This document shows positions 523 to 9,710 of a stretch of DNA of 32,000 nucleotides, in pieces. This DNA comes from Promethearchaeota archaeon (GTDB lineage: Archaea > Asgardarchaeota > Lokiarchaeia > Sigyniarchaeales > Promethearchaeaceae), in the NCBI GenBank assembly GCA_016933055.1, contig JAFGBS010000011.1:1-32000 (forward strand), given 5' to 3'. Positions within the stretch are counted from its first letter, which is position 1; each line of letters opens with the position of its first letter. Position numbers and translations under genes: made by a program. The notes beneath the pieces were generated by a model. That model made no database searches. It worked only from the letters and a program-made list of their open reading frames with translations, and was not told the DNA's origin.

Positions 523-565
523 TATAGCAAATACTAATATGCTATAGAATACTATAATATTCTAT
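523..565. promoter_or_regulatory. Two inverted repeats upstream of the antitoxin; candidate operators
   Basis: TATAGCA(523-529)/TGCTATA(540-546) and ATAGAATA(544-551)/TATTCTAT(558-565), the latter overlapping the ATG. Confidence 0.45.
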
Positions 566-782
566 GAGTAAAACCACTATTCAAGTAGATAAAGCAATCA
601 AGGACCAGCTTGAAGACTTGAAGATACATCCCCGAGAGCCCTATTCTGATGTAATATCACGATTATTACAACTATGTGTGGATTCCAAAGAAGAATATTT
701 AAAGTTGGTTTATAGAATCCAGGAACAAAAAATGAAAGAACTCTGGGATAATGAAGAGGATTCCGTGTGGGATTCTTTATAA
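564..782 (+). CDS. Antitoxin, RHH-like N-terminus with acidic W-x-x-E-E-D-x-x-W tail (MazE-equivalent)
   Basis: KTTIQV beta strand, YSDVISRLL helix, WDNEEDSVWDSL tail; directly upstream of a MazF-like gene. Confidence 0.85.
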   Translation: MSKTTIQVDKAIKDQLEDLKIHPREPYSDVISRLLQLCVDSKEEYLKLVYRIQEQKMKELWDNEEDSVWDSL

Positions 783-802
783 AATACGGAGAAGGATATG
801 AA

Positions 803-1135
803 TTGGGAGAGAGAGAAACTTTAAGATACAATTTTGGTGATGTCATCCTCGCAGAAATAACATTCGTTGAGAGGACTGAATCTAAAAAGCGACCTGCAGT
901 AGTTCTTTTTGAAGATCTCGGGAATGTGGTAGTTGCAGGAATAACAAGCAACTTGAAAATGCAAGGAATTTCGGTATCTCGAGATGAAGGGGCGATGAGA
1001 GAAAGTGTAATTAAAACGAATTATATCTTTACTATTGACCCAAGTATAATTGTACGGAAATTATTTTCACTTACTGAAGAAAAACGAGAAATATTATGCA
1101 CCGAATTGAAAGGAAAAATCTGTGGATATTCATAA
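803..1135 (+). CDS. mazF: PemK/MazF-family endoribonuclease toxin (ORF open from GTG 767; TTG 803 preferred)
   Basis: GDVILAEITF...KKRPAVVL...VVVAGITSN...SVIK...IFTID...I.RKL.SL motif pattern. Confidence 0.9.
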   Translation: MGERETLRYNFGDVILAEITFVERTESKKRPAVVLFEDLGNVVVAGITSNLKMQGISVSRDEGAMRESVIKTNYIFTIDPSIIVRKLFSLTEEKREILCTELKGKICGYS

Positions 1136-1299
1136 CGAGCTTTTTACTATCGCCGGAATGATTTCATCTATGTGCATTGTTACTAATTCGTTTAAATTTA
1201 ATTTCCGTTGAGTATGGTTTAAAACTTCAATAACTACAACCTTTTAACCTTTGGAATAATCGACTAAGATTCCGGAAGAGACCTAGTCTGATTCAGCAA
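1130..1299 (-). pseudogene. DUF2283-family remnant, C-terminal half, two stops and a frameshift
   Basis: FAESD*VSSGILVDYSKG*KVVVIEVLN; 1246-1299 matches 8103-8156 at 50/54 nt. Confidence 0.75.
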
Positions 1300-1307
1300 A
1301 CCTGCCA

Positions 1308-1442
1308 AAGGTAACTATTTATGATATGATGGAGCACTGCAAAAGAGAGCAAATTCGTCCTGTTGATCCAGATTCAACTGAACTGACGAGGGATAGGATA
1401 AATGCGGAAGAAATCTTTCGTAAATTGAAGGAGGAGAAATAA
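1308..1442 (+). pseudogene. C-terminal fragment of a UPF0175-like antitoxin
   Basis: KVTIYDMMEHCKREQIRP resembles EVTLYKMMEYIQREKIRP of 3228-3554; no N-terminus. Confidence 0.7.
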
Positions 1443-2630: not shown

Positions 2631-2654
2631 AACACTTCAAGGTGTAGAACCAAT

Positions 2655-2698
2655 AATGTATACAATCGATATGTTTAATATAATAAAATGTATACAAT
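2655..2698. promoter_or_regulatory. Two AATGTATACAAT boxes flanking a TATA-like element; probable autoregulatory operator
   Basis: Exact 12-mer at 2655-2666 and 2687-2698 (palindromic core TGTATACA), TTTAATAT at 2674-2681. Confidence 0.65.
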
Positions 2699-2704
2699 TA
2701 CATA

Positions 2705-3235
2705 ATGAAATACATTCTGGATGCAAACACCATACTTTATCTCACGAAACTAAATTTGCATGAATTTTTTCTTCAGCTACTAAAAAACAATGAAATTCGA
2801 ATTGATACGAGTGTCTATAAAGAAACTGTTGAGGATGGGATGAGATATAAATATCCTGATGGAATATTAATCAAAAATTGGCTGGAAAAATATCAAATAC
2901 CGATAATTCCAGTTGATATAAGTGAGATGATTCCACTTTATCGAGATCCAGGGGAAACTAGTTGCGCAATTTTAGTATCTAGAGATACAGAAGATAGTAT
3001 ATGTGTGACTTCTGATAACAAAACAATCGACAAATTCGAAAAAAATGCTATTCCATATACACAAATAGATACTTTCTTTTATGGAATGGTTTTAGAGGAA
3101 AAAATTAACTCAAAAACATTTTTCGATATACTGTACCAATTAGAATCAATATTTGCAATAAAATCTGAGCGTGTTTTATATTTTCACGAATTATTACAAA
3201 ATGAAAAACCTATACAAAATGATAACAATGAGTAA
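2705..3235 (+). CDS. PIN-domain toxin, DUF3368-like
   Basis: YILDAN, VYKETV, DPGETSCAIL, VTSDNK acidic motifs; overlaps the next gene. Confidence 0.85.
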   Translation: MKYILDANTILYLTKLNLHEFFLQLLKNNEIRIDTSVYKETVEDGMRYKYPDGILIKNWLEKYQIPIIPVDISEMIPLYRDPGETSCAILVSRDTEDSICVTSDNKTIDKFEKNAIPYTQIDTFFYGMVLEEKINSKTFFDILYQLESIFAIKSERVLYFHELLQNEKPIQNDNNE

Positions 3236-3554
3236 AACTATTAGTACGCGTTTATCTGATAAAGAAGTAGCGGAATTGGAAGAAATTGCTGCAAAAGAAA
3301 AGCTAGATCGGTCCGCACTTGTTAGAAGTTTCGTTCTACACCAACTTGAAGAATATAAAATGAAAGAAAGTGCGAGACTTTATCAAAAAGGAATAGTTAG
3401 CTTGCAAGAAGCTGCCACTTCCGCAGAAGTGACTCTATATAAAATGATGGAATATATTCAGCGAGAAAAAATTCGACCTCCCACACAATCAAGAGAAGAT
3501 TTTAAAGAGGAAATTGCGAAATCTCTTAAGTGGTTACTAAACAAAAAAATTTAG
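3228..3554 (+). CDS. RHH + UPF0175-like antitoxin, downstream of its toxin (ORF track starts at 3171)
   Basis: SKTISTRL, DRSALVR, LYQKGIVSLQEAA; ATG 3228 overlaps the PIN stop. Confidence 0.88.
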   Translation: MSKTISTRLSDKEVAELEEIAAKEKLDRSALVRSFVLHQLEEYKMKESARLYQKGIVSLQEAATSAEVTLYKMMEYIQREKIRPPTQSREDFKEEIAKSLKWLLNKKI

Positions 3555-3579: not shown

Positions 3580-3693
3580 ATGCTTGACTTACCGGAAGAA
3601 AATAAGTCTACAAAGGAAATCAAATTGGAAAAACTACTTCCTGAACTATTAGATGAGTATCAACAAGGAAATAAAGGATTTAAAAAAATCTAA
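3580..3693 (+). pseudogene. Truncated RHH-less antitoxin-tail paralog (37 aa)
   Basis: MLDLPEENKSTKEIKLEKLLPELLDEYQQGNKGFKKI*; homologous to 9493-9710 and 7738-8070. Confidence 0.7.
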
Positions 3694-3729
3694 ACCTTTG
3701 AATGATGGTGTGGATGCAATAGATCTCTA

Positions 3730-3804
3730 ATGACGAATACTTATTATTCCAAAATGCTTAATTCTCTCAGAGAGATGCAATCTCCAATACTATTTCTTCC
3801 CTAG
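3730..3804 (+). pseudogene. N-terminal stub of the MNT nucleotidyltransferase gene seen at 8434
   Basis: 3732-3789 vs 8436-8493 ungapped 49/58 identical; MTNTYYSKMLNSLREMQSPIL vs MPNIYYSKKYNSFREMQSPIL. Confidence 0.7.
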
Positions 3805-4161
3805 GGTAATCCCTTTATCAAATGATACCCCCTTTTTCTGCAGCTCTTGCAGATAGGGGGTCAATTTCTTCCCAATTTCCCGAGAATAGGCAATAATCGA
3901 ATCATCCATATCAATATCGTCAATCAAATCAGGAAGCAGGTGATATATTTCCGTATGATGAATTCCGGTTATGTATGATATATTTTTGATCGAAATCTTT
4001 CCTTCTTTGTATAAATTGGCTAGATAAGGCATCATTTTCGTCTTCAGACCGTCCTGAAAAATTTCCTTGGAAATCGCTGATTTCGTTTTTTTCTCCATAT
4101 CTGCCATAAATTCAAGGAATTTATTGGTGATATCATCTATGCGAAAATTTACTTGACTCAT
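3790..4161 (-). CDS. RHH + UPF0175-like putative antitoxin, divergent pair 1
   Basis: MSQVNFRI, KSAISKE, LYKEGKISI...TGI; ungapped homolog of 7738-8070. Confidence 0.85.
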   Translation of the reverse strand: MSQVNFRIDDITNKFLEFMADMEKKTKSAISKEIFQDGLKTKMMPYLANLYKEGKISIKNISYITGIHHTEIYHLLPDLIDDIDMDDSIIAYSREIGKKLTPYLQELQKKGVSFDKGITLGKK

Positions 4162-4213
4162 ATCTAGCTATTGAAAGTAATCTTTTTATATATATTTTGC
4201 TAGAATGTCTATA
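4162..4213. promoter_or_regulatory. 52-bp bidirectional promoter with central TATA box
   Basis: TTTATATA at 4185-4192, about 26-27 nt from both ATGs (4161 and 4214); TCTAGC/GCTAGA inverted repeat at 4163-4168/4199-4204. Confidence 0.6.
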
Positions 4214-4717
4214 ATGTCCTCAATATCAAAACTAATAATTGACACAGGAACGTGGACAAAGTTGGATACTTTAGTAATTGATGGTGCAATTTCAAAGGAG
4301 TTCATCGAATTGCTTTACGAACAATTTGATATAATAATAACACCTGAGATTGAGATAGAGATAGAATACTACAATATATCTAGTTGGATTAAAAACCAAA
4401 CCTTTGTGATTCCTGTTAAATATATTGAGGCTAAGAAAAAGGCGGAGAGAGATGGATTTGATGAAGCAGATGCCAGTATTTTTGGAATCGATACTAGAGA
4501 TTGTATTATTTTATCAGAAGACAGACCACTAATAAAATATGGATCAATATCATTGATGAACTTTATGTATTTCGCTGAATTCTTACTATTATTATGTGAA
4601 TCCTCTCTTGTCTCCAAAAATAATTTATACGACCTAAATAAACACCTCTATTCTATTCGCAATATCGGTAAGAAGCTCTTTAAAGATATTAAACAGAAAA
4701 CTCACTTGATTACTTAA
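4214..4717 (+). CDS. PIN-domain protein, divergent pair 1 (ORF track starts at 4205)
   Basis: LIIDTGTW, ITPEIEIE, GFDEADAS, LSEDRPL; homolog of 7194-7685. Confidence 0.85.
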   Translation: MSSISKLIIDTGTWTKLDTLVIDGAISKEFIELLYEQFDIIITPEIEIEIEYYNISSWIKNQTFVIPVKYIEAKKKAERDGFDEADASIFGIDTRDCIILSEDRPLIKYGSISLMNFMYFAEFLLLLCESSLVSKNNLYDLNKHLYSIRNIGKKLFKDIKQKTHLIT

Positions 4718-4752
4718 TTATTCTATCAGAAACAATAAAAATTTCAAGCTCA

Positions 4753-4920
4753 CTAATCCAAATTACTTATCAAGCTCGCATCAGCTTCATCAAAACCAAG
4801 AGATTTAGAATCTTGATACATCCGATTTTTCAGTGTTGGAAGAATATGAGTTCTATTAATATCACATGATGTTAAACGAAAATGGTTGATTTCCTTAAGA
4901 ATTTCGTGTGTAATACACAC
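4753..4920 (-). pseudogene. Internal fragment of a PIN gene closely related to 7194-7685
   Basis: VCITHEILKEINHFRLTSCDINRTHILPTLKNRMYQDSKSLGFDEADASLISNLD*; no N-terminus. Confidence 0.9.
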
Positions 4921-4927
4921 AGTGATT

Positions 4928-5173
4928 GATTACACTACCAAAATAACTGAAGAATTACTAAACAAAATTCAGTTAATACCTGTCACTATGAATACTATTA
5001 TGAAATCAAAAGATTACATTACTGAACAAAACTTGTATGGGGTGGATGCTATTCACGCAGCGACAGCTGTAATCCATCAGTGTGATGAATTCCTCACTTT
5101 TGACGGTGATTTTAAGAATATCCACATTGGAATTCCAATTATTCATCCTGAAGAAAAAAAATTCCACCCATAG
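4928..5173 (+). pseudogene. Chimeric remnant: antitoxin tail (DYTTKITEELLNK) fused in frame to the C-half of a VapC like 19208-19657
   Basis: KIQLIPVTMNTIM...DAIHAATAVIHQCDEFLTFD.DF...IGIPIIHPE closely matches 19208-19657; first PIN acidic motifs absent. Confidence 0.85.
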
Positions 5174-5223
5174 GAAAACTATGAAAAAATATATCTAATA
5201 TTGACATATTAATCAAAAACGCG
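5164..5223. repeat. Second copy of the 60-bp direct repeat (see 1-60)
   Basis: 59/60 identity. Confidence 0.95.
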
Positions 5224-5224
5224 C

Positions 5225-5368
5225 AGTTACCTCAGATTTATTCACATGGAAAACGAGCTATCAGAGCTATTAGGTGTTAAAGTAGATTCAGTTACGAGAG
5301 ATTCTCTCCATCCTATGTTGCGAGAAACAATATTGAGAGAATTGAGGATTGTATATGATGAAATCTGA
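5225..5368 (+). pseudogene. C-terminal half of a minimal nucleotidyltransferase (MNT/MntA-type antitoxin)
   Basis: MENELSELLGVKVDSVTRDSLHPMLRETILRELRIVYDEI*; GS/DxD motif half missing. Confidence 0.8.
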
Positions 5369-5470
5369 CTGTTTTTACTTATCTCATCTTTAAAACTCAT
5401 TGTATAAAATCGATTATTACATTCTGGATATTGAGAATTAATTATTTTTATCCAACACAAAATATTAGAG
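5358..5470 (+). pseudogene. HEPN (DUF86/HepT-type) N-terminal remnant with stops
   Basis: MKSDCFYLSHL*NSLYKIDYYILDIEN*; homologous to 8609-8743; overlaps the MNT stop. Confidence 0.7.
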
Positions 5471-5583
5471 ATGATTAGCAATCATTAGATGTCTGTTTCC
5501 CTATTTTGATATGAAAAAATTTAAACTGCTATCCTTTTTCAAAGAAAGATACCATTATTAGTAGGAAATACTATATTTATTAT

Positions 5584-5826
5584 ATGACGACTCAATCATC
5601 CAAAATAAACAAAAAAGGAATGGTTACCATTCCCTATAAAATCCGAGAAAAATTTGACTTGCATGAAGGAACTGAAGTCGCGTTTGTTGTAGAAGAGGGT
5701 AGTATTGTGCTTGTACCTATACTTCCAATTGAGAAGCTTCGGAAATTTCTCCCAACTGCAGAAGAAATGATGAAAACTGCAGAAGAAAATCGAAAGTTGG
5801 AATTAAAATTGGAGCAGAGGGATTAA
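5584..5826 (+). CDS. vapB: AbrB/MazE/SpoVT-fold antitoxin
   Basis: KINKKGMVTIPYKIREKFDLHEGTEVAF...IVLVP. Confidence 0.93.
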   Translation: MTTQSSKINKKGMVTIPYKIREKFDLHEGTEVAFVVEEGSIVLVPILPIEKLRKFLPTAEEMMKTAEENRKLELKLEQRD

Positions 5827-6249
5827 ATGCAAAAAATCTGCCTGGATACGGGGATTCTTAATTTATATCTCGCTAATGAATCACCAAAAAAAATTAATGA
5901 GTTAATTTCTCGAGTAAAAAAAGGAGAATTACAATGTTACATAATTGAGTCGGTGTTAGTCGAACTTTACTTAAATATATGCAAGAGAGAAGGTATTGAA
6001 ATCGCCAGAATCACAACATTATCTTTTATCCGTGATTTTCCCCATATCCTTGTTAACTTAGATGAAGATCTGATCATCACTGCGGGAAAATTAAAATGCC
6101 AACACCAAGCCGATTTGTCTCACATTGATTGTATGAGTATTGCATTTTGTCTGAATACTGGTATAACCTTTCACACAACGGAAAAAAATCTCAAGAAAAT
6201 CCCACACAACACGCTTCAACGCTTAAAAGTAGTGAAATATGAATACTAA
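5827..6249 (+). CDS. vapC: VapC PIN toxin
   Basis: CLDTG, VLVEL, LSHIDCMSIA, HTTEKNL; abuts the antitoxin stop. Confidence 0.9.
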   Translation: MQKICLDTGILNLYLANESPKKINELISRVKKGELQCYIIESVLVELYLNICKREGIEIARITTLSFIRDFPHILVNLDEDLIITAGKLKCQHQADLSHIDCMSIAFCLNTGITFHTTEKNLKKIPHNTLQRLKVVKYEY

Positions 6250-6397
6250 TACACCGCAATCCATTATTCTTCCTCATTTCACTTAAAATGCAAAAATCTG
6301 CGTATACTTTCGTGAATTATTTAATCTTGGAACACAAATCTAATTACGAATATTACTCAAGTTTCTATCAATAAAGATCTTGCCAATTATATGTTAT

Positions 6398-6565
6398 TTA
6401 CTGATATGAATGGATTACTTCAATAATAGACTTATTCTCTCTTTTCGCAATTTCTGATATGATTCGTCGGGCTAGATGAACTTGTTGAAGAGCAGGATCA
6501 TTAGGAAATTCCTTTGTAACTTCTTCTTCCAATTTACTAATATCTTCTTTACTTAGATTTAACAT
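6398..6565 (-). CDS. 55-aa putative antitoxin partner of the upstream PIN gene (below the ORF-track cutoff)
   Basis: Hand translation MLNLSKEDISKLEEEVTKEFPNDPALQQVHLARRIISEIAKRENKSIIEVIHSYQ*; ATG 5 bp after the PIN stop. Confidence 0.75.
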   Translation of the reverse strand: MLNLSKEDISKLEEEVTKEFPNDPALQQVHLARRIISEIAKRENKSIIEVIHSYQ

Positions 6566-6570
6566 ATCTA

Positions 6571-7032
6571 TCAATCCAATAATTCTGCGGGTGTTATTAT
6601 GGAAATATCAGTTAGTTTACGAATTGTATTAACCATTTTTACTATATTTTTAGTTTTAATCTTAACTATATGTTTGAAATTCCAGCTAACCAAATAATCC
6701 ATATTATTTAATACTGCACACGCGATGTGAAGAGCGTCTTCTGCAAAATTTCCTGGAATTGCTCCATGGTCAACATAATCATTTGATAACTCTTGGTCTT
6801 CATTTCCTATTTTCAATACTGTAATTCCATTTGTCAATTCGATCATTTTATTCTTTAATTCAAGATTTGGAGTTAAATTCAATTCAGCAATTGTGATTTC
6901 AGAAATATAGAAACTAAAATCATGTTGCATCTTAAAAAATTCCAAGGTTAAGGTTTTTCGTTCGGGATTGCGTTCATCGAAATATGCAGAAATCACGGAA
7001 GTATCCAAATATACCTTTAGCTTGGATTTCAT
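6571..7032 (-). CDS. PIN-domain toxin (SWNFKHI subtype)
   Basis: VYLDTSV, ITIAEL, EDALHIACA, LVSWNFKHIV, IITPAEL. Confidence 0.93.
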   Translation of the reverse strand: MKSKLKVYLDTSVISAYFDERNPERKTLTLEFFKMQHDFSFYISEITIAELNLTPNLELKNKMIELTNGITVLKIGNEDQELSNDYVDHGAIPGNFAEDALHIACAVLNNMDYLVSWNFKHIVKIKTKNIVKMVNTIRKLTDISIITPAELLD

Positions 7033-7193
7033 ATATTCTTTGAAGTAAAATAACTACTAATCATTTGTGGTATAAAATATCTGATCATTTTTTCTGTTTC
7101 AACGAATTTAGATGTTCATCTGATTTAAGACAATCATTGTTTAACGATCTTTTCGTCAAATATGATGAGTTTTTGCTGATAAAGGATGACTTC

Positions 7194-7685
7194 CTAATTG
7201 TGTTGTAGCCATTTTTTCATATATTTTTCTTTTTTTTTCGATATATTCTTTAAATATCTCAATTCTTTGGTTATCGTGTAAAGATCGTTTTTTGTTAATA
7301 TATTCTGGGCGGTTAAAAATTGACATAGATCTATTAGTTGTATAATCTTTGCTCCATATCTAGTTCCTAGAGATAATAAAGGGCGATCTTCAGAAACACC
7401 AAGAAATTCTTTCGTTCTATCTAAATTACTTATCAAACTAGCATCAGCTTCATCAAATCCTAGAGATGTGGAATCTTGATACATTCGATTTATCTGTGTT
7501 GGAAGAATTTGGGTTCTAGCGATATCACATGATGATAATTGAAAATGGTTGATTTCCTTAAGTATTTCGTGAGTAATACATACATTGACAGAGTTATACA
7601 ACGAATCAAGAATTTTTAGTTTATTCTCAAGTATTCCAAGTTTTTTCCACGAAAATGTGTCGACAATTATAGATATTTTTTGCAT
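7194..7685 (-). CDS. PIN-domain protein, divergent pair 2
   Basis: IIVDTFSW, ITHEILKEI, GFDEADAS, VSEDRPL. Confidence 0.87.
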   Translation of the reverse strand: MQKISIIVDTFSWKKLGILENKLKILDSLYNSVNVCITHEILKEINHFQLSSCDIARTQILPTQINRMYQDSTSLGFDEADASLISNLDRTKEFLGVSEDRPLLSLGTRYGAKIIQLIDLCQFLTAQNILTKNDLYTITKELRYLKNISKKKEKYMKKWLQHN

Positions 7686-7737
7686 TATATTATTTCTACC
7701 CTTTACTTTATATAATCTTGAGTACTAAATATACTTA
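7686..7737. promoter_or_regulatory. 52-bp bidirectional promoter with a palindromic TATA box centred between two ATGs
   Basis: TTATATAA at 7708-7715; centre 26.5 nt from both 7685 and 7738. Confidence 0.65.
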
Positions 7738-8070
7738 ATGAGTCAAATCAATATTAAAATTAATGAAGAAATGGATCAATTATTAAATTACATAGCGCAA
7801 AAGCGTAAAATCGCTAAATCAACCTTAGCAAAAGAACTTTTATTAGAAAATATTCAGGATAAAATACTGCCTGAGTTATTAGAAGAATATGAACAGGGAA
7901 ATATAGGATTAAAAAAAATCATGCGATTAACCGGAATTGATGCAGATAGACTTCTTGCCAAAATAGTTGAACAGGGTATTGAATGTCCTATTACTCCTGA
8001 AATTGATGATTATACAACCAAATTAACAGAGGATTTAATAAACAAAACGAAACTGATAGCAAAAAAGTGA
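7738..8070 (+). CDS. RHH + UPF0175-like putative antitoxin, divergent pair 2
   Basis: MSQINIKI, KSTLAKE, EYEQGNIGL...TGI. Confidence 0.87.
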   Translation: MSQINIKINEEMDQLLNYIAQKRKIAKSTLAKELLLENIQDKILPELLEEYEQGNIGLKKIMRLTGIDADRLLAKIVEQGIECPITPEIDDYTTKLTEDLINKTKLIAKK

Positions 8071-8241
8071 TGTATCGGATTTTTTTACAGTAGAAAATGT
8101 ACAACCTTTGGAATAATCGACTATGATTCCGGAAGAGATCTGGTCTGATTCGGCAATTTTTTCTTCCGAAAATTTAATATAAAGCACATCGGCAACCTTA
8201 TCAAATGAAAAATCGATAAGTAAATGAAAAATTCCTTCCAA
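8035..8241 (-). pseudogene. DUF2283-family gene, N-half intact, C-terminus lost after DYSKG
   Basis: FDKVADVLYIKFSEEKIAESDQISSGIIVDYSKG, then unrelated sequence running into the antitoxin gene. Confidence 0.75.
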
Positions 8242-9103: not shown

Positions 9104-9475
9104 ATGTATCTTCTGGATACAAATGCCATGATTGTGCTGCATGAAGACCTAAAATCTTGGAAGAATGAAGAGAATCTTTTTACTACCATTTTAAATGTAA
9201 TTGAATTCCCAATCGCATTACGCATGGATGTTTTAACCATTCTCTTTCCATTACCTGAATCTTATATAAAAGGAATAGAATATTCCACCAATTTAAGGAA
9301 AAAAGGTACTCCGATTGCTACAATTGATATTATGATTGGAGTTCTTGCAGTTGAACATGGATTAACATTAGTTACTGATGACAAAGATTTTACAGCTTTG
9401 CAAAAAATTGAATCCAAACTTAACATTTGTAATACCTCCAAATTTATTGATAGTTTGTTATCAAAAAAGAAATAA
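9104..9475 (+). CDS. vapC: VapC PIN toxin
   Basis: YLLDTN, NVIEF, IATIDIMIG, LVTDDKDF. Confidence 0.92.
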   Translation: MYLLDTNAMIVLHEDLKSWKNEENLFTTILNVIEFPIALRMDVLTILFPLPESYIKGIEYSTNLRKKGTPIATIDIMIGVLAVEHGLTLVTDDKDFTALQKIESKLNICNTSKFIDSLLSKKK

Positions 9476-9492: not shown

Positions 9493-9710
9493 ATGCCTAA
9501 CCTCCCAGAAGAAAATGAGCATACCAAGGAAAACAAATTGGAAAAATCAATACCCGAATTATTAGATGAGTAGCAACAGGGCAAAATCGGGTTAAAAAAA
9601 TCATTCACCTTACTGGGATTGATGTAGATAATCTTCTTGCCAAAATACTTGAACTGAATATTGAATGTCCTATTACTCCAGAAATAGATGATTACACTGA
9701 ATACATCTAA
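9493..9710 (+). pseudogene. RHH-less antitoxin-tail paralog with TAG (9571) and a 1-nt deletion in an A-run (9594-9600)
   Basis: MPNLPEENEHTKENKLEKSIPELLDE*QQGKIGLKK/IIHLTGIDVDNLLAKILELNIECPITPEIDDYT. Confidence 0.85.

Follow-up and report, generated by a model that had tools for sequence, protein, structure and literature searches.

Toxin-antitoxin (TA) systems of type II and of the VapBC kind combine a PIN-fold toxin, which carries acidic catalytic residues, with a small DNA-binding partner of the RHH (ribbon-helix-helix), AbrB or another type, and they occur as multiple, patchily distributed copies within TA islands. We analyzed a 32,000-nucleotide stretch of DNA from a Promethearchaeota archaeon (positions 1–32,000 of contig JAFGBS010000011.1, GenBank assembly GCA_016933055.1; this whole stretch is called the window) and located two paralogous gene pairs, at 3790–4717 and 7194–8070, which share these features. 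Each pair encodes a PIN-like protein and a small partner with an N-terminal ribbon-helix-helix (RHH) segment, the C-terminal part of the partner is modelled over the PIN active site, and a sister clade of the family has the antitoxin-then-toxin operon known from VapBC. The window pairs differ from VapBC in that their genes are adjacent but head to head, an arrangement that we find at 40 loci, and not co-transcribed. In addition, the toxin has no Pfam PIN match, the partner contains an extra UPF0175-like middle segment, and the predicted mRNAs are separate and leaderless. The literature that we searched contains no account of a type II module arranged head to head. A preliminary description of this DNA had proposed a distinct class of TA system, which is too strong a term: within a VapBC-like family, this is a variant in gene orientation, and its sister clade has the normal operon. 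Judged against the known systems, the module appears to be a conserved orientation variant of a system of known kind, built on an uncatalogued PIN-like family, for which a shared-TATA mechanism is plausible.

Pairs of UPF0175 (PF03683) and COG2405-DUF3368 (PF11848) proteins likewise join a PIN-like toxin to a partner with a UPF0175-like helical segment (PMC5499597), and the window PIN protein has the COG2405 structure 2mdt as one of its best matches in fold (Z 11.6). Those pairs are co-directional, however, and the window proteins remain below the PF03683 threshold and do not match PF11848. Canonical UPF0175-DUF3368 pairs stand beside divergent modules in the window (2705–3554) and at a distant locus, L080. 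The PIN survey of Matelska et al. (2017, PMC5499597) counted same-strand neighbors only and therefore could not see a head-to-head layout. For the promoter, a precedent exists in Pyrococcus furiosus, where bidirectional transcription from a shared TATA has been shown in vivo and in vitro; paired transcription start sites (TSSs) enclose a near-symmetric TATA and are separated by 49–50 bp, 49 bp being the in vitro value (Gruenberger et al. 2019, PMC6640164). The window modules resemble these promoters in the near-symmetric TATA midway between divergent starts ∼50 bp apart and in the AT-rich organism. In P. furiosus the second transcript is mostly antisense RNA without a function and the promoters display a BRE-TATA-BRE motif (BRE, transcription factor B recognition element), whereas here both predicted products are leaderless coding mRNAs for a protein pair predicted to interact, and the arrangement is under selection.

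A bacterial case with a reportedly similar gene layout is RacR/YdaS-YdaT of the Escherichia coli rac prophage. Here, too, a repressor gene adjoins toxic genes under its control, and the abstract of the report speaks of genes that are "divergently transcribed" (PMC5700377). It differs in its bacterial sigma-70 promoters, in a helix-turn-helix repressor that acts on transcription and in its unrelated proteins, none of them a PIN protein.

The open reading frame (ORF) listing and direct reading of the sequence place both pairs exactly where the preliminary description had them, and the motifs it listed (DT..W.KL, IT.EI..E, GFDEADAS, SEDRPL and MSQ.N..I) are found in the proteins (Table I). The two PIN-like paralogues share 31% sequence identity (E 1e-19) and the two RHH paralogues 34% across their first 67 residues (E 2e-14); in pair 1, the RHH and PIN genes match the respective family profiles at E 4e-38 and 2e-45. 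Both spacers measure exactly 52 bp, given that the pair 1 PIN gene starts at ATG 4214. We prefer this codon to ATG 4205 because the family N-terminus in the profile alignment fits and because the TATA 8-mer then lies at -29, the genome-wide modal position. ATG 4205 was ruled out, since a distance of 20 nt to the TATA would place it upstream of where the TSS is expected. In an ungapped, same-orientation alignment of the two spacers, the start codons fall on each other, as does a central TATATA core, and the single central TATA claimed earlier is present in both, 29–33 nt from both start codons. Pair 1 has TTTATATA at -29 from the PIN ATG and a TATA with one mismatch at -33 from the RHH ATG; in pair 2, the TATA 8-mer is found at -31 from either ATG.

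Neither PIN-like protein is matched in Pfam or NCBIfam searches, and neither reaches the gathering threshold of the PIN families, including PF01850, PF13470, PF13638 and PF11848. When 67 family members were compared with Pfam, we obtained scattered sub-threshold matches (DUF188, DUF5615, DUF4411, PIN, PIN_4 and PIN_9; best E 0.0014–0.02). The fold, three-layered (alpha/beta/alpha) and called as PIN in the preliminary description, is upheld by structure and catalytic residues rather than by Pfam. An AlphaFold2 model of the pair 2 protein (predicted local distance difference test, pLDDT, 94.5) retrieves PIN domains exclusively among the best 50 of ∼500 Foldseek matches (E down to 1e-4), and in the VIA alignment the best 50 PDB entries are again all PIN domains (Z 9.1–11.7, root mean square deviation 2.5–4.2 Å over 98–129 residues). 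The top fold matches are 1y82, PH0500 (1v96), the COG2405 protein SSO1118 (2mdt) and VapC4 (5h4g), with Z 11.4–11.7; PAE2754, HARP, Utp24 and Nob1 are also among the matches. The family profile itself reaches the PIN chain 1o4w at E 0.0012. Three acidic residues, D9, E44 and D100, are invariant in the 67-sequence alignment, and T10, T38, D78, A80 and D81 are nearly so (D78 and D81 are conserved in ≥90% of sequences). D9, E44 and D100 together with D78 and D81 correspond to the acidic PIN active site, which has an Asp in strand 1, a Glu in helix 2, an Asp near helix 4 and an Asp after strand 4, and since these residues are kept, the protein is probably a Mg-dependent RNase. The larger protein of each pair thus belongs to a new family inside the PIN-like superfamily that is absent from Pfam. 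Frames of ∼586–630 amino acids in the phylum families f13, f15 and f33 (for example G024:C36:2133-2519 and G038:C27:17890-18279) weakly match the PIN-like profile over their first ∼125 residues (E 1e-6 to 5e-11) and may be a fused, longer relative.

The PIN-like family is rare: 110 representative clusters among 1.84 billion match at E ≤0.001, and a word-indexed search returned 10 matches. All named relatives are Asgard archaea (Promethearchaeota, Harpocratesius repetitus, Heimdallarchaeota, Baldrarchaeota and Sigynarchaeota), and pattern scans of metagenome contigs and viral contigs gave no confirmed relative. Within the window's phylum, 29 of 400 genomes match strongly (E <1e-30), and a single genome can contain as many as 9 copies. 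We fetched 68 loci, located both genes by profile hidden Markov models (HMMs) and tabulated orientation and spacing. The RHH and PIN genes are divergent at 39 loci and in the distant member L080, 40 in all, spread over at least 10 GTDB families of Asgard archaea; homologues of the divergent clade are thus neither tandem nor unlinked. Three of these assignments were corrected by hand to divergent (L014_943, spacer of 61 bp; L043, 55 bp; L072, 58 bp), and two loci at contig ends (L048 and L040) are uninformative for architecture. The RHH gene precedes the PIN gene in tandem at 26 loci (gaps of -4 to 93 bp), which occur only in the window's own class and form a single clade on a maximum-likelihood PIN tree (SH-aLRT 99), all other members being divergent; on this tree, which is unrooted, one change of architecture suffices. 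Divergent loci are also found in four more distant families of the phylum (f11, f13, f15 and f16), and the layout is kept down to ∼25–30% protein identity. Two of the divergent loci, L042 and L068, belong to the closed genome of Harpocratesius repetitus (G134). The partners of the two clades are homologous over their length (28% identity). Both architectures coexist in the window's own genome, which contains a copy of the tandem clade (L047, C25:561-1418) with the RHH gene at 1095–1418(-), the PIN gene at 561–1070(-) and a gap of 24 bp.

Spacer length is constrained but not fixed. The divergent spacers range from 43 to 111 bp with a mode of 52; 19 of 40 fall between 47 and 55 bp and 38 of 40 between 47 and 77 bp. 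A spacer of exactly 52 bp recurs at 9 divergent loci from at least 6 separate lineages, and the shortest, 43 bp at L013, is probably explained by a GTG start, with which the spacer would measure 61 bp. Among 632 crude divergent gene pairs in the genome, 13 have spacers of 48–56 bp and the median gap is 173 bp; against this background the family is enriched for short spacers (18 of 39 divergent loci at 47–55 bp, Fisher p 4e-16, although relatives are not independent).

Independently of spacer length, the TATA 8-mer starts between -28 and -32 relative to the PIN ATG in 22 of 36 loci. Each of the 17 loci whose spacers measure 47–54 bp has a TATA between -28 and -33 relative to either ATG. When the spacers are right-aligned on the PIN ATG, a common plan emerges: a dyad or repeat at about -55 to -35 (examples are GTACT-n-AGTAC, GCTATA-n-TATAGC and GGTTA-n-TAACC), the TATA at -31 to -22 and a second, related site at -20 to -3. 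The same 12-mer flanks the TATA on both sides beyond shuffled controls in 9 of 35 spacers (p ≤0.05; mean z 1.33), several of these repeats being perfect (12/12). A test for perfect palindromes in each spacer was mostly not significant in these AT-rich sequences (4 of 36 at p ≤0.05) and told less than the comparison of 12-mers. The tandem clade shows the same order of dyad, TATA and ATG upstream of its RHH gene, the dyad likewise at -55 to -35. The divergent form thus resembles that promoter turned towards PIN, its opposite side being occupied by a flipped RHH gene. At L080 (254–1974), the divergent module has a 52-bp spacer, a GTG start and the palindromes GGTTA..TAACC and GTTT..AAAC around AAATTTAAATTT, and a co-directional UPF0175 plus DUF3368 pair adjoins it.

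The spacer is under purifying selection. Between pair 1 and its same-genus orthologue L011, 51 of 52 spacer bases are identical (98%), compared with 84–88% at third codon positions, and the pair 2 spacer is 83% and 75% identical to those of L005 and L003, compared with 57% and 49%. The block of homology with L011 covers 3790–4758, and the flanks outside the module do not align.

These spacers belong to a genome of 35% GC in which TATA hexamers peak at -29 from the ATG (145 hits over a background of ∼35 in 2320 upstream regions), with a separate Shine-Dalgarno (SD) peak at -11. The sharpness of the TATA peak suggests that a sizeable share of the genes is probably leaderless. SD sequences are reportedly rare in Lokiarchaea (PMC12993045), and an SD-like motif precedes the PIN gene in none of 37 divergent-clade genes versus 4 of 27 tandem ones. 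Three further genes for which the same TATA spacing had been claimed, at 1827, 2705 and 18972, do have TATA 8-mers, at -28, -31 and -30. Compact shared-TATA spacers are present but rare elsewhere in the genome: about a dozen unrelated divergent pairs have spacers of 48–56 bp (for example C6:79936-79987, C6:226934-226985 and C17:82446-82494), several of them with a central TATA-like element, and bidirectional promoters with a shared TATA may be a general, if minor, trait of this genome.

The partner begins with an RHH segment assigned to DUF6290 (PF19807, E 4.5e-7 in pair 2), a domain that a marine survey of TA systems counts among the antitoxin partners (PMC12654330), and the pair 2 protein also has sub-threshold matches to RelB antitoxins. 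Of the RHH-UPF0175 architecture read from the sequence at first, the RHH part stands; the helical middle is weakly UPF0175-like in pair 1, where PF03683 is matched below its threshold (E 0.055, 13.6 bits with a cutoff of 27.9), and pair 2 gives no PF03683 match. In the alignment, the tail, ECPITPEIDDYT, is strongly conserved, the most so of all parts of the protein, and a helix comes after it. The AlphaFold model of the partner monomer is poor (pLDDT 65), as expected for an obligate dimer, and was left out of the fold search. Modelled together, PIN and partner reach an interaction prediction score from aligned errors (ipSAE) of 0.88 in three runs, the best of three controls scoring 0.00; the mark applied to this score is reached by 58 of 80 solved complexes and by 2 of 110 mismatched pairs. 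The runs agree in ≥96% of contacts, the partner has a pLDDT of ≥86, and its residues 54–104 are laid over PIN residues 10–11, 44, 78, 80 and 99–102, on the catalytic face. The model supports binding of the partner to the active-site face of PIN.

We consider it probable that the window contains an Asgard-only, VapBC-like module whose antitoxin gene is inverted relative to the toxin gene, with one shared TATA, two leaderless mRNAs, repression by the RHH protein and a block of the active site. The window would thus hold two paralogous copies and one decayed copy of a type II TA module. The partner would dimerize and bind DNA via its N-terminal RHH segment, and its C-terminal half (the ECPITPEIDDYT segment and the last helix) would cover the active site of PIN and inhibit it. 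The 52-bp spacer would be a complete control region composed of a dyad or repeat, a quasi-palindromic TATA at leaderless distance (∼29–31 nt) from both start codons and a second repeat. One TATA bound by the TATA-binding protein (TBP) could nucleate a pre-initiation complex in either direction, giving two separate leaderless mRNAs, and the RHH protein, bound on either side of the TATA, would act as a repressor of both genes. Two leaderless mRNAs made from one shared TATA are consistent with the observed geometry and fit, by analogy, the TSS spacing in P. furiosus. Toxicity of the PIN-like protein and an operator function of the repeats are likewise predicted, and binding by the partner is predicted from the model.

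Several points weigh against this account. The PIN assignment comes without a match to any Pfam PIN model at threshold, and the score of the modelled complex may derive in part from its likeness to solved VapBC complexes. Both window spacers show weak repeat evidence (z ∼0.2). We infer the TSSs, the leaderless status and the sharing of the TATA from spacing only: for positions 3700–8100 of the window no RNA run is listed, and two metatranscriptome runs from what is probably the source study gave no reads on this stretch, a result that carries no information on expression. Stoichiometry had been proposed to depend on BRE orientation, which is not supported: a BRE logo was sought genome-wide, and we see no signal beside 250 aligned TATA boxes of this genome, hence no cue to direction. 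Finally, spacers of 58–77 bp keep the TATA at -29 from the PIN start and place it at -35 to -54 from the RHH start, so that the RHH mRNA would need a short leader or a second, weaker TATA, and the 111-bp spacer contains two TATAs, each ∼30 nt from its own ATG. TATA sharing is thus common but not universal, and the shared-TATA design is not obligatory for the family.

This last point is what one would see if the central TATA served PIN only, with the RHH gene using a weak or unrecognized promoter of its own or a short leader, and if the length of 52 bp reflected compaction after inversion. The TATA is indeed tied to the PIN ATG at all spacer lengths while its distance to the RHH start drifts, the longest spacer holds a TATA for each gene, and the polarity of dyad, TATA and ATG is that of the tandem-clade promoter, pointing to PIN in the divergent clade. 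Yet every spacer of 47–54 bp has a single TATA-like element which is at the correct distance from the RHH ATG as well, space for a second TATA is absent and the core is quasi-palindromic. Moreover, TATA boxes of P. furiosus fire both ways at this spacing, and the same 52 bp has recurred in separate lineages. We regard a TATA reserved for PIN, the main rival reading, as unlikely.

A bolder version of the shared-TATA reading is that the symmetric TATA acts as a mutually exclusive two-way switch, in which each initiation would give a toxin or an antitoxin mRNA but never both, and in which ratio and noise would be set by the orientation of the pre-initiation complex and tuned by the flanking RHH operators. 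We put this forward tentatively, as a possibility that we hold to be rather unlikely. If true, the switch would represent a TA regulatory logic without bacterial counterpart, kept across Asgard archaea and recalling eukaryotic bidirectional promoters.

The locus might also be no TA system at all, the RHH protein being an ordinary transcription factor over a neighboring RNA-processing PIN RNase with which it forms no inhibitory complex. Transcription factors are typically encoded divergently from their targets, the name "rRNA-processing protein FCF1" is given to a homologue in one database source, and Utp24, Nob1 and HARP are among the top fold matches. Against this, the modules are multi-copy, patchy and decaying and are found within a TA island that has MazEF and VapBC neighbors, and in the sister clade a homologous partner forms a canonical antitoxin-toxin operon. 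The modelled cover over the catalytic residues, the conservation of the partner tail and the listing of DUF6290 among antitoxin partners likewise speak for a TA function, and we find this alternative improbable. A third alternative, in which one ancient inversion left the head-to-head layout behind as a neutral relic that is maintained by descent alone and devoid of regulatory meaning, seems very improbable to us: one change on the tree explains all the data and related loci are not independent samples, but the layout persists at low protein identity and across Asgard classes, nearly all spacers are far shorter than the genome-wide divergent median, and the spacer is better conserved than synonymous sites.

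On the reading that we prefer, an inverted antitoxin gene sharing one TATA with its toxin, natural selection would have maintained, in those archaea that are most closely related to eukaryotes, a shared TATA with two functional products that interact with each other. The module would also offer a compact, testable system in which TBP and transcription factor B choose a direction on a symmetric TATA, and the divergent and tandem sister clades would amount to a natural experiment on transcriptional and translational coupling in toxin-antitoxin balance. TA surveys restricted to the same strand (e.g. PMC5499597) miss such modules, and a whole family that spans the Asgard archaea, its PIN-like toxin uncatalogued, is probably missing from their counts.

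Table I. Positions of the two head-to-head pairs, the collapsed third copy and neighboring genes in the window
Feature	Positions	Strand	Remarks
Pair 1, antitoxin-like gene	3790-4161	-	123 aa; N-terminal RHH, weakly UPF0175-like middle, C-terminal tail
Pair 1, spacer	4162-4213	.	52 bp; A/T core 4183-4198; TTTATATA at 4185-4192
Pair 1, spacer inverted repeat TCTAGC/GCTAGA	4163-4168 and 4199-4204		Weak repeat evidence (z 0.2)
Pair 1, PIN-like gene (predicted toxin)	4214-4717	+	167 aa counted from ATG 4214
Collapsed third copy, PIN-like fragment	~4750-4935	-	Residues ~30-91; 3 stops
Collapsed third copy, RHH partner C-terminal fragment	4927-4968	+	88% to 3' end of the L005 partner gene (blastn)
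Pair 2, PIN-like gene (predicted toxin)	7194-7685	-	163 aa; ORF
Pair 2, spacer	7686-7737	.	52 bp; central TATA
Pair 2, spacer TATA	7707-7714		TTTATATA towards the RHH gene; ATTATATA on the other strand, -31 from the PIN ATG
Pair 2, antitoxin-like gene	7738-8070	+	110 aa; RHH (DUF6290), helical middle, conserved ECPITPEIDDYT tail
DUF7557/VapB-like gene with MazF	564-1135		Island neighbor
MazE with PIN	5584-6249		Island neighbor
PIN genes	6571-7032 and 9104-9475		Island neighbors

The collapsed third copy that had been noted at 4753–4978 is real and spans ∼4750–4968. A search of the window's own genome finds its PIN fragment 79% identical to residues 30–91 of the pair 2 PIN protein, and in blastn the region 4762–4920 matches the PIN genes of L005 and L003. 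The fragment adjoins the C-terminal RHH fragment; with a truncated PIN gene beside the 3' end of a partner gene, deletion must have removed the 5' end of PIN together with the spacer and the greater part of the partner gene. In a chimeric ORF at 4886–5173, the RHH partner 3' fragment is joined to one half, the C-terminal one, of a canonical PIN domain (PF01850 positions 59–117); this ORF is a remnant of recombination between TA modules. We identified more fragments of RHH partner genes at 56–295, 3625–3696 and 9517–9701 (61%, 63% and 45–58% identical to pair 2). None of them faces a PIN gene and some contain stops. Dead copies of the module outnumber live ones in the island.

The ∼10 kb around the two pairs form a TA island whose remaining modules are all co-directional (Table I). 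One of these, at 2645–3554, has the toxin first: a 176-residue protein with no Pfam match (2705–3235) is followed by an RHH_1 plus UPF0175 protein (3237–3554). Its promoter carries the 12-mer AATGTATACAAT, with the palindromic core TGTATACA, on both sides of a TATA located 31 nt before ATG 2705, a plan of operator, TATA and operator shared with the divergent modules. The island also includes a gene (1827–2630), with a TATA 28 nt before its ATG, for a 267-residue protein that combines a weak RHH match at the N-terminus with an aspartyl protease domain of the retropepsin-like type (PF00077, E 1.2e-9).

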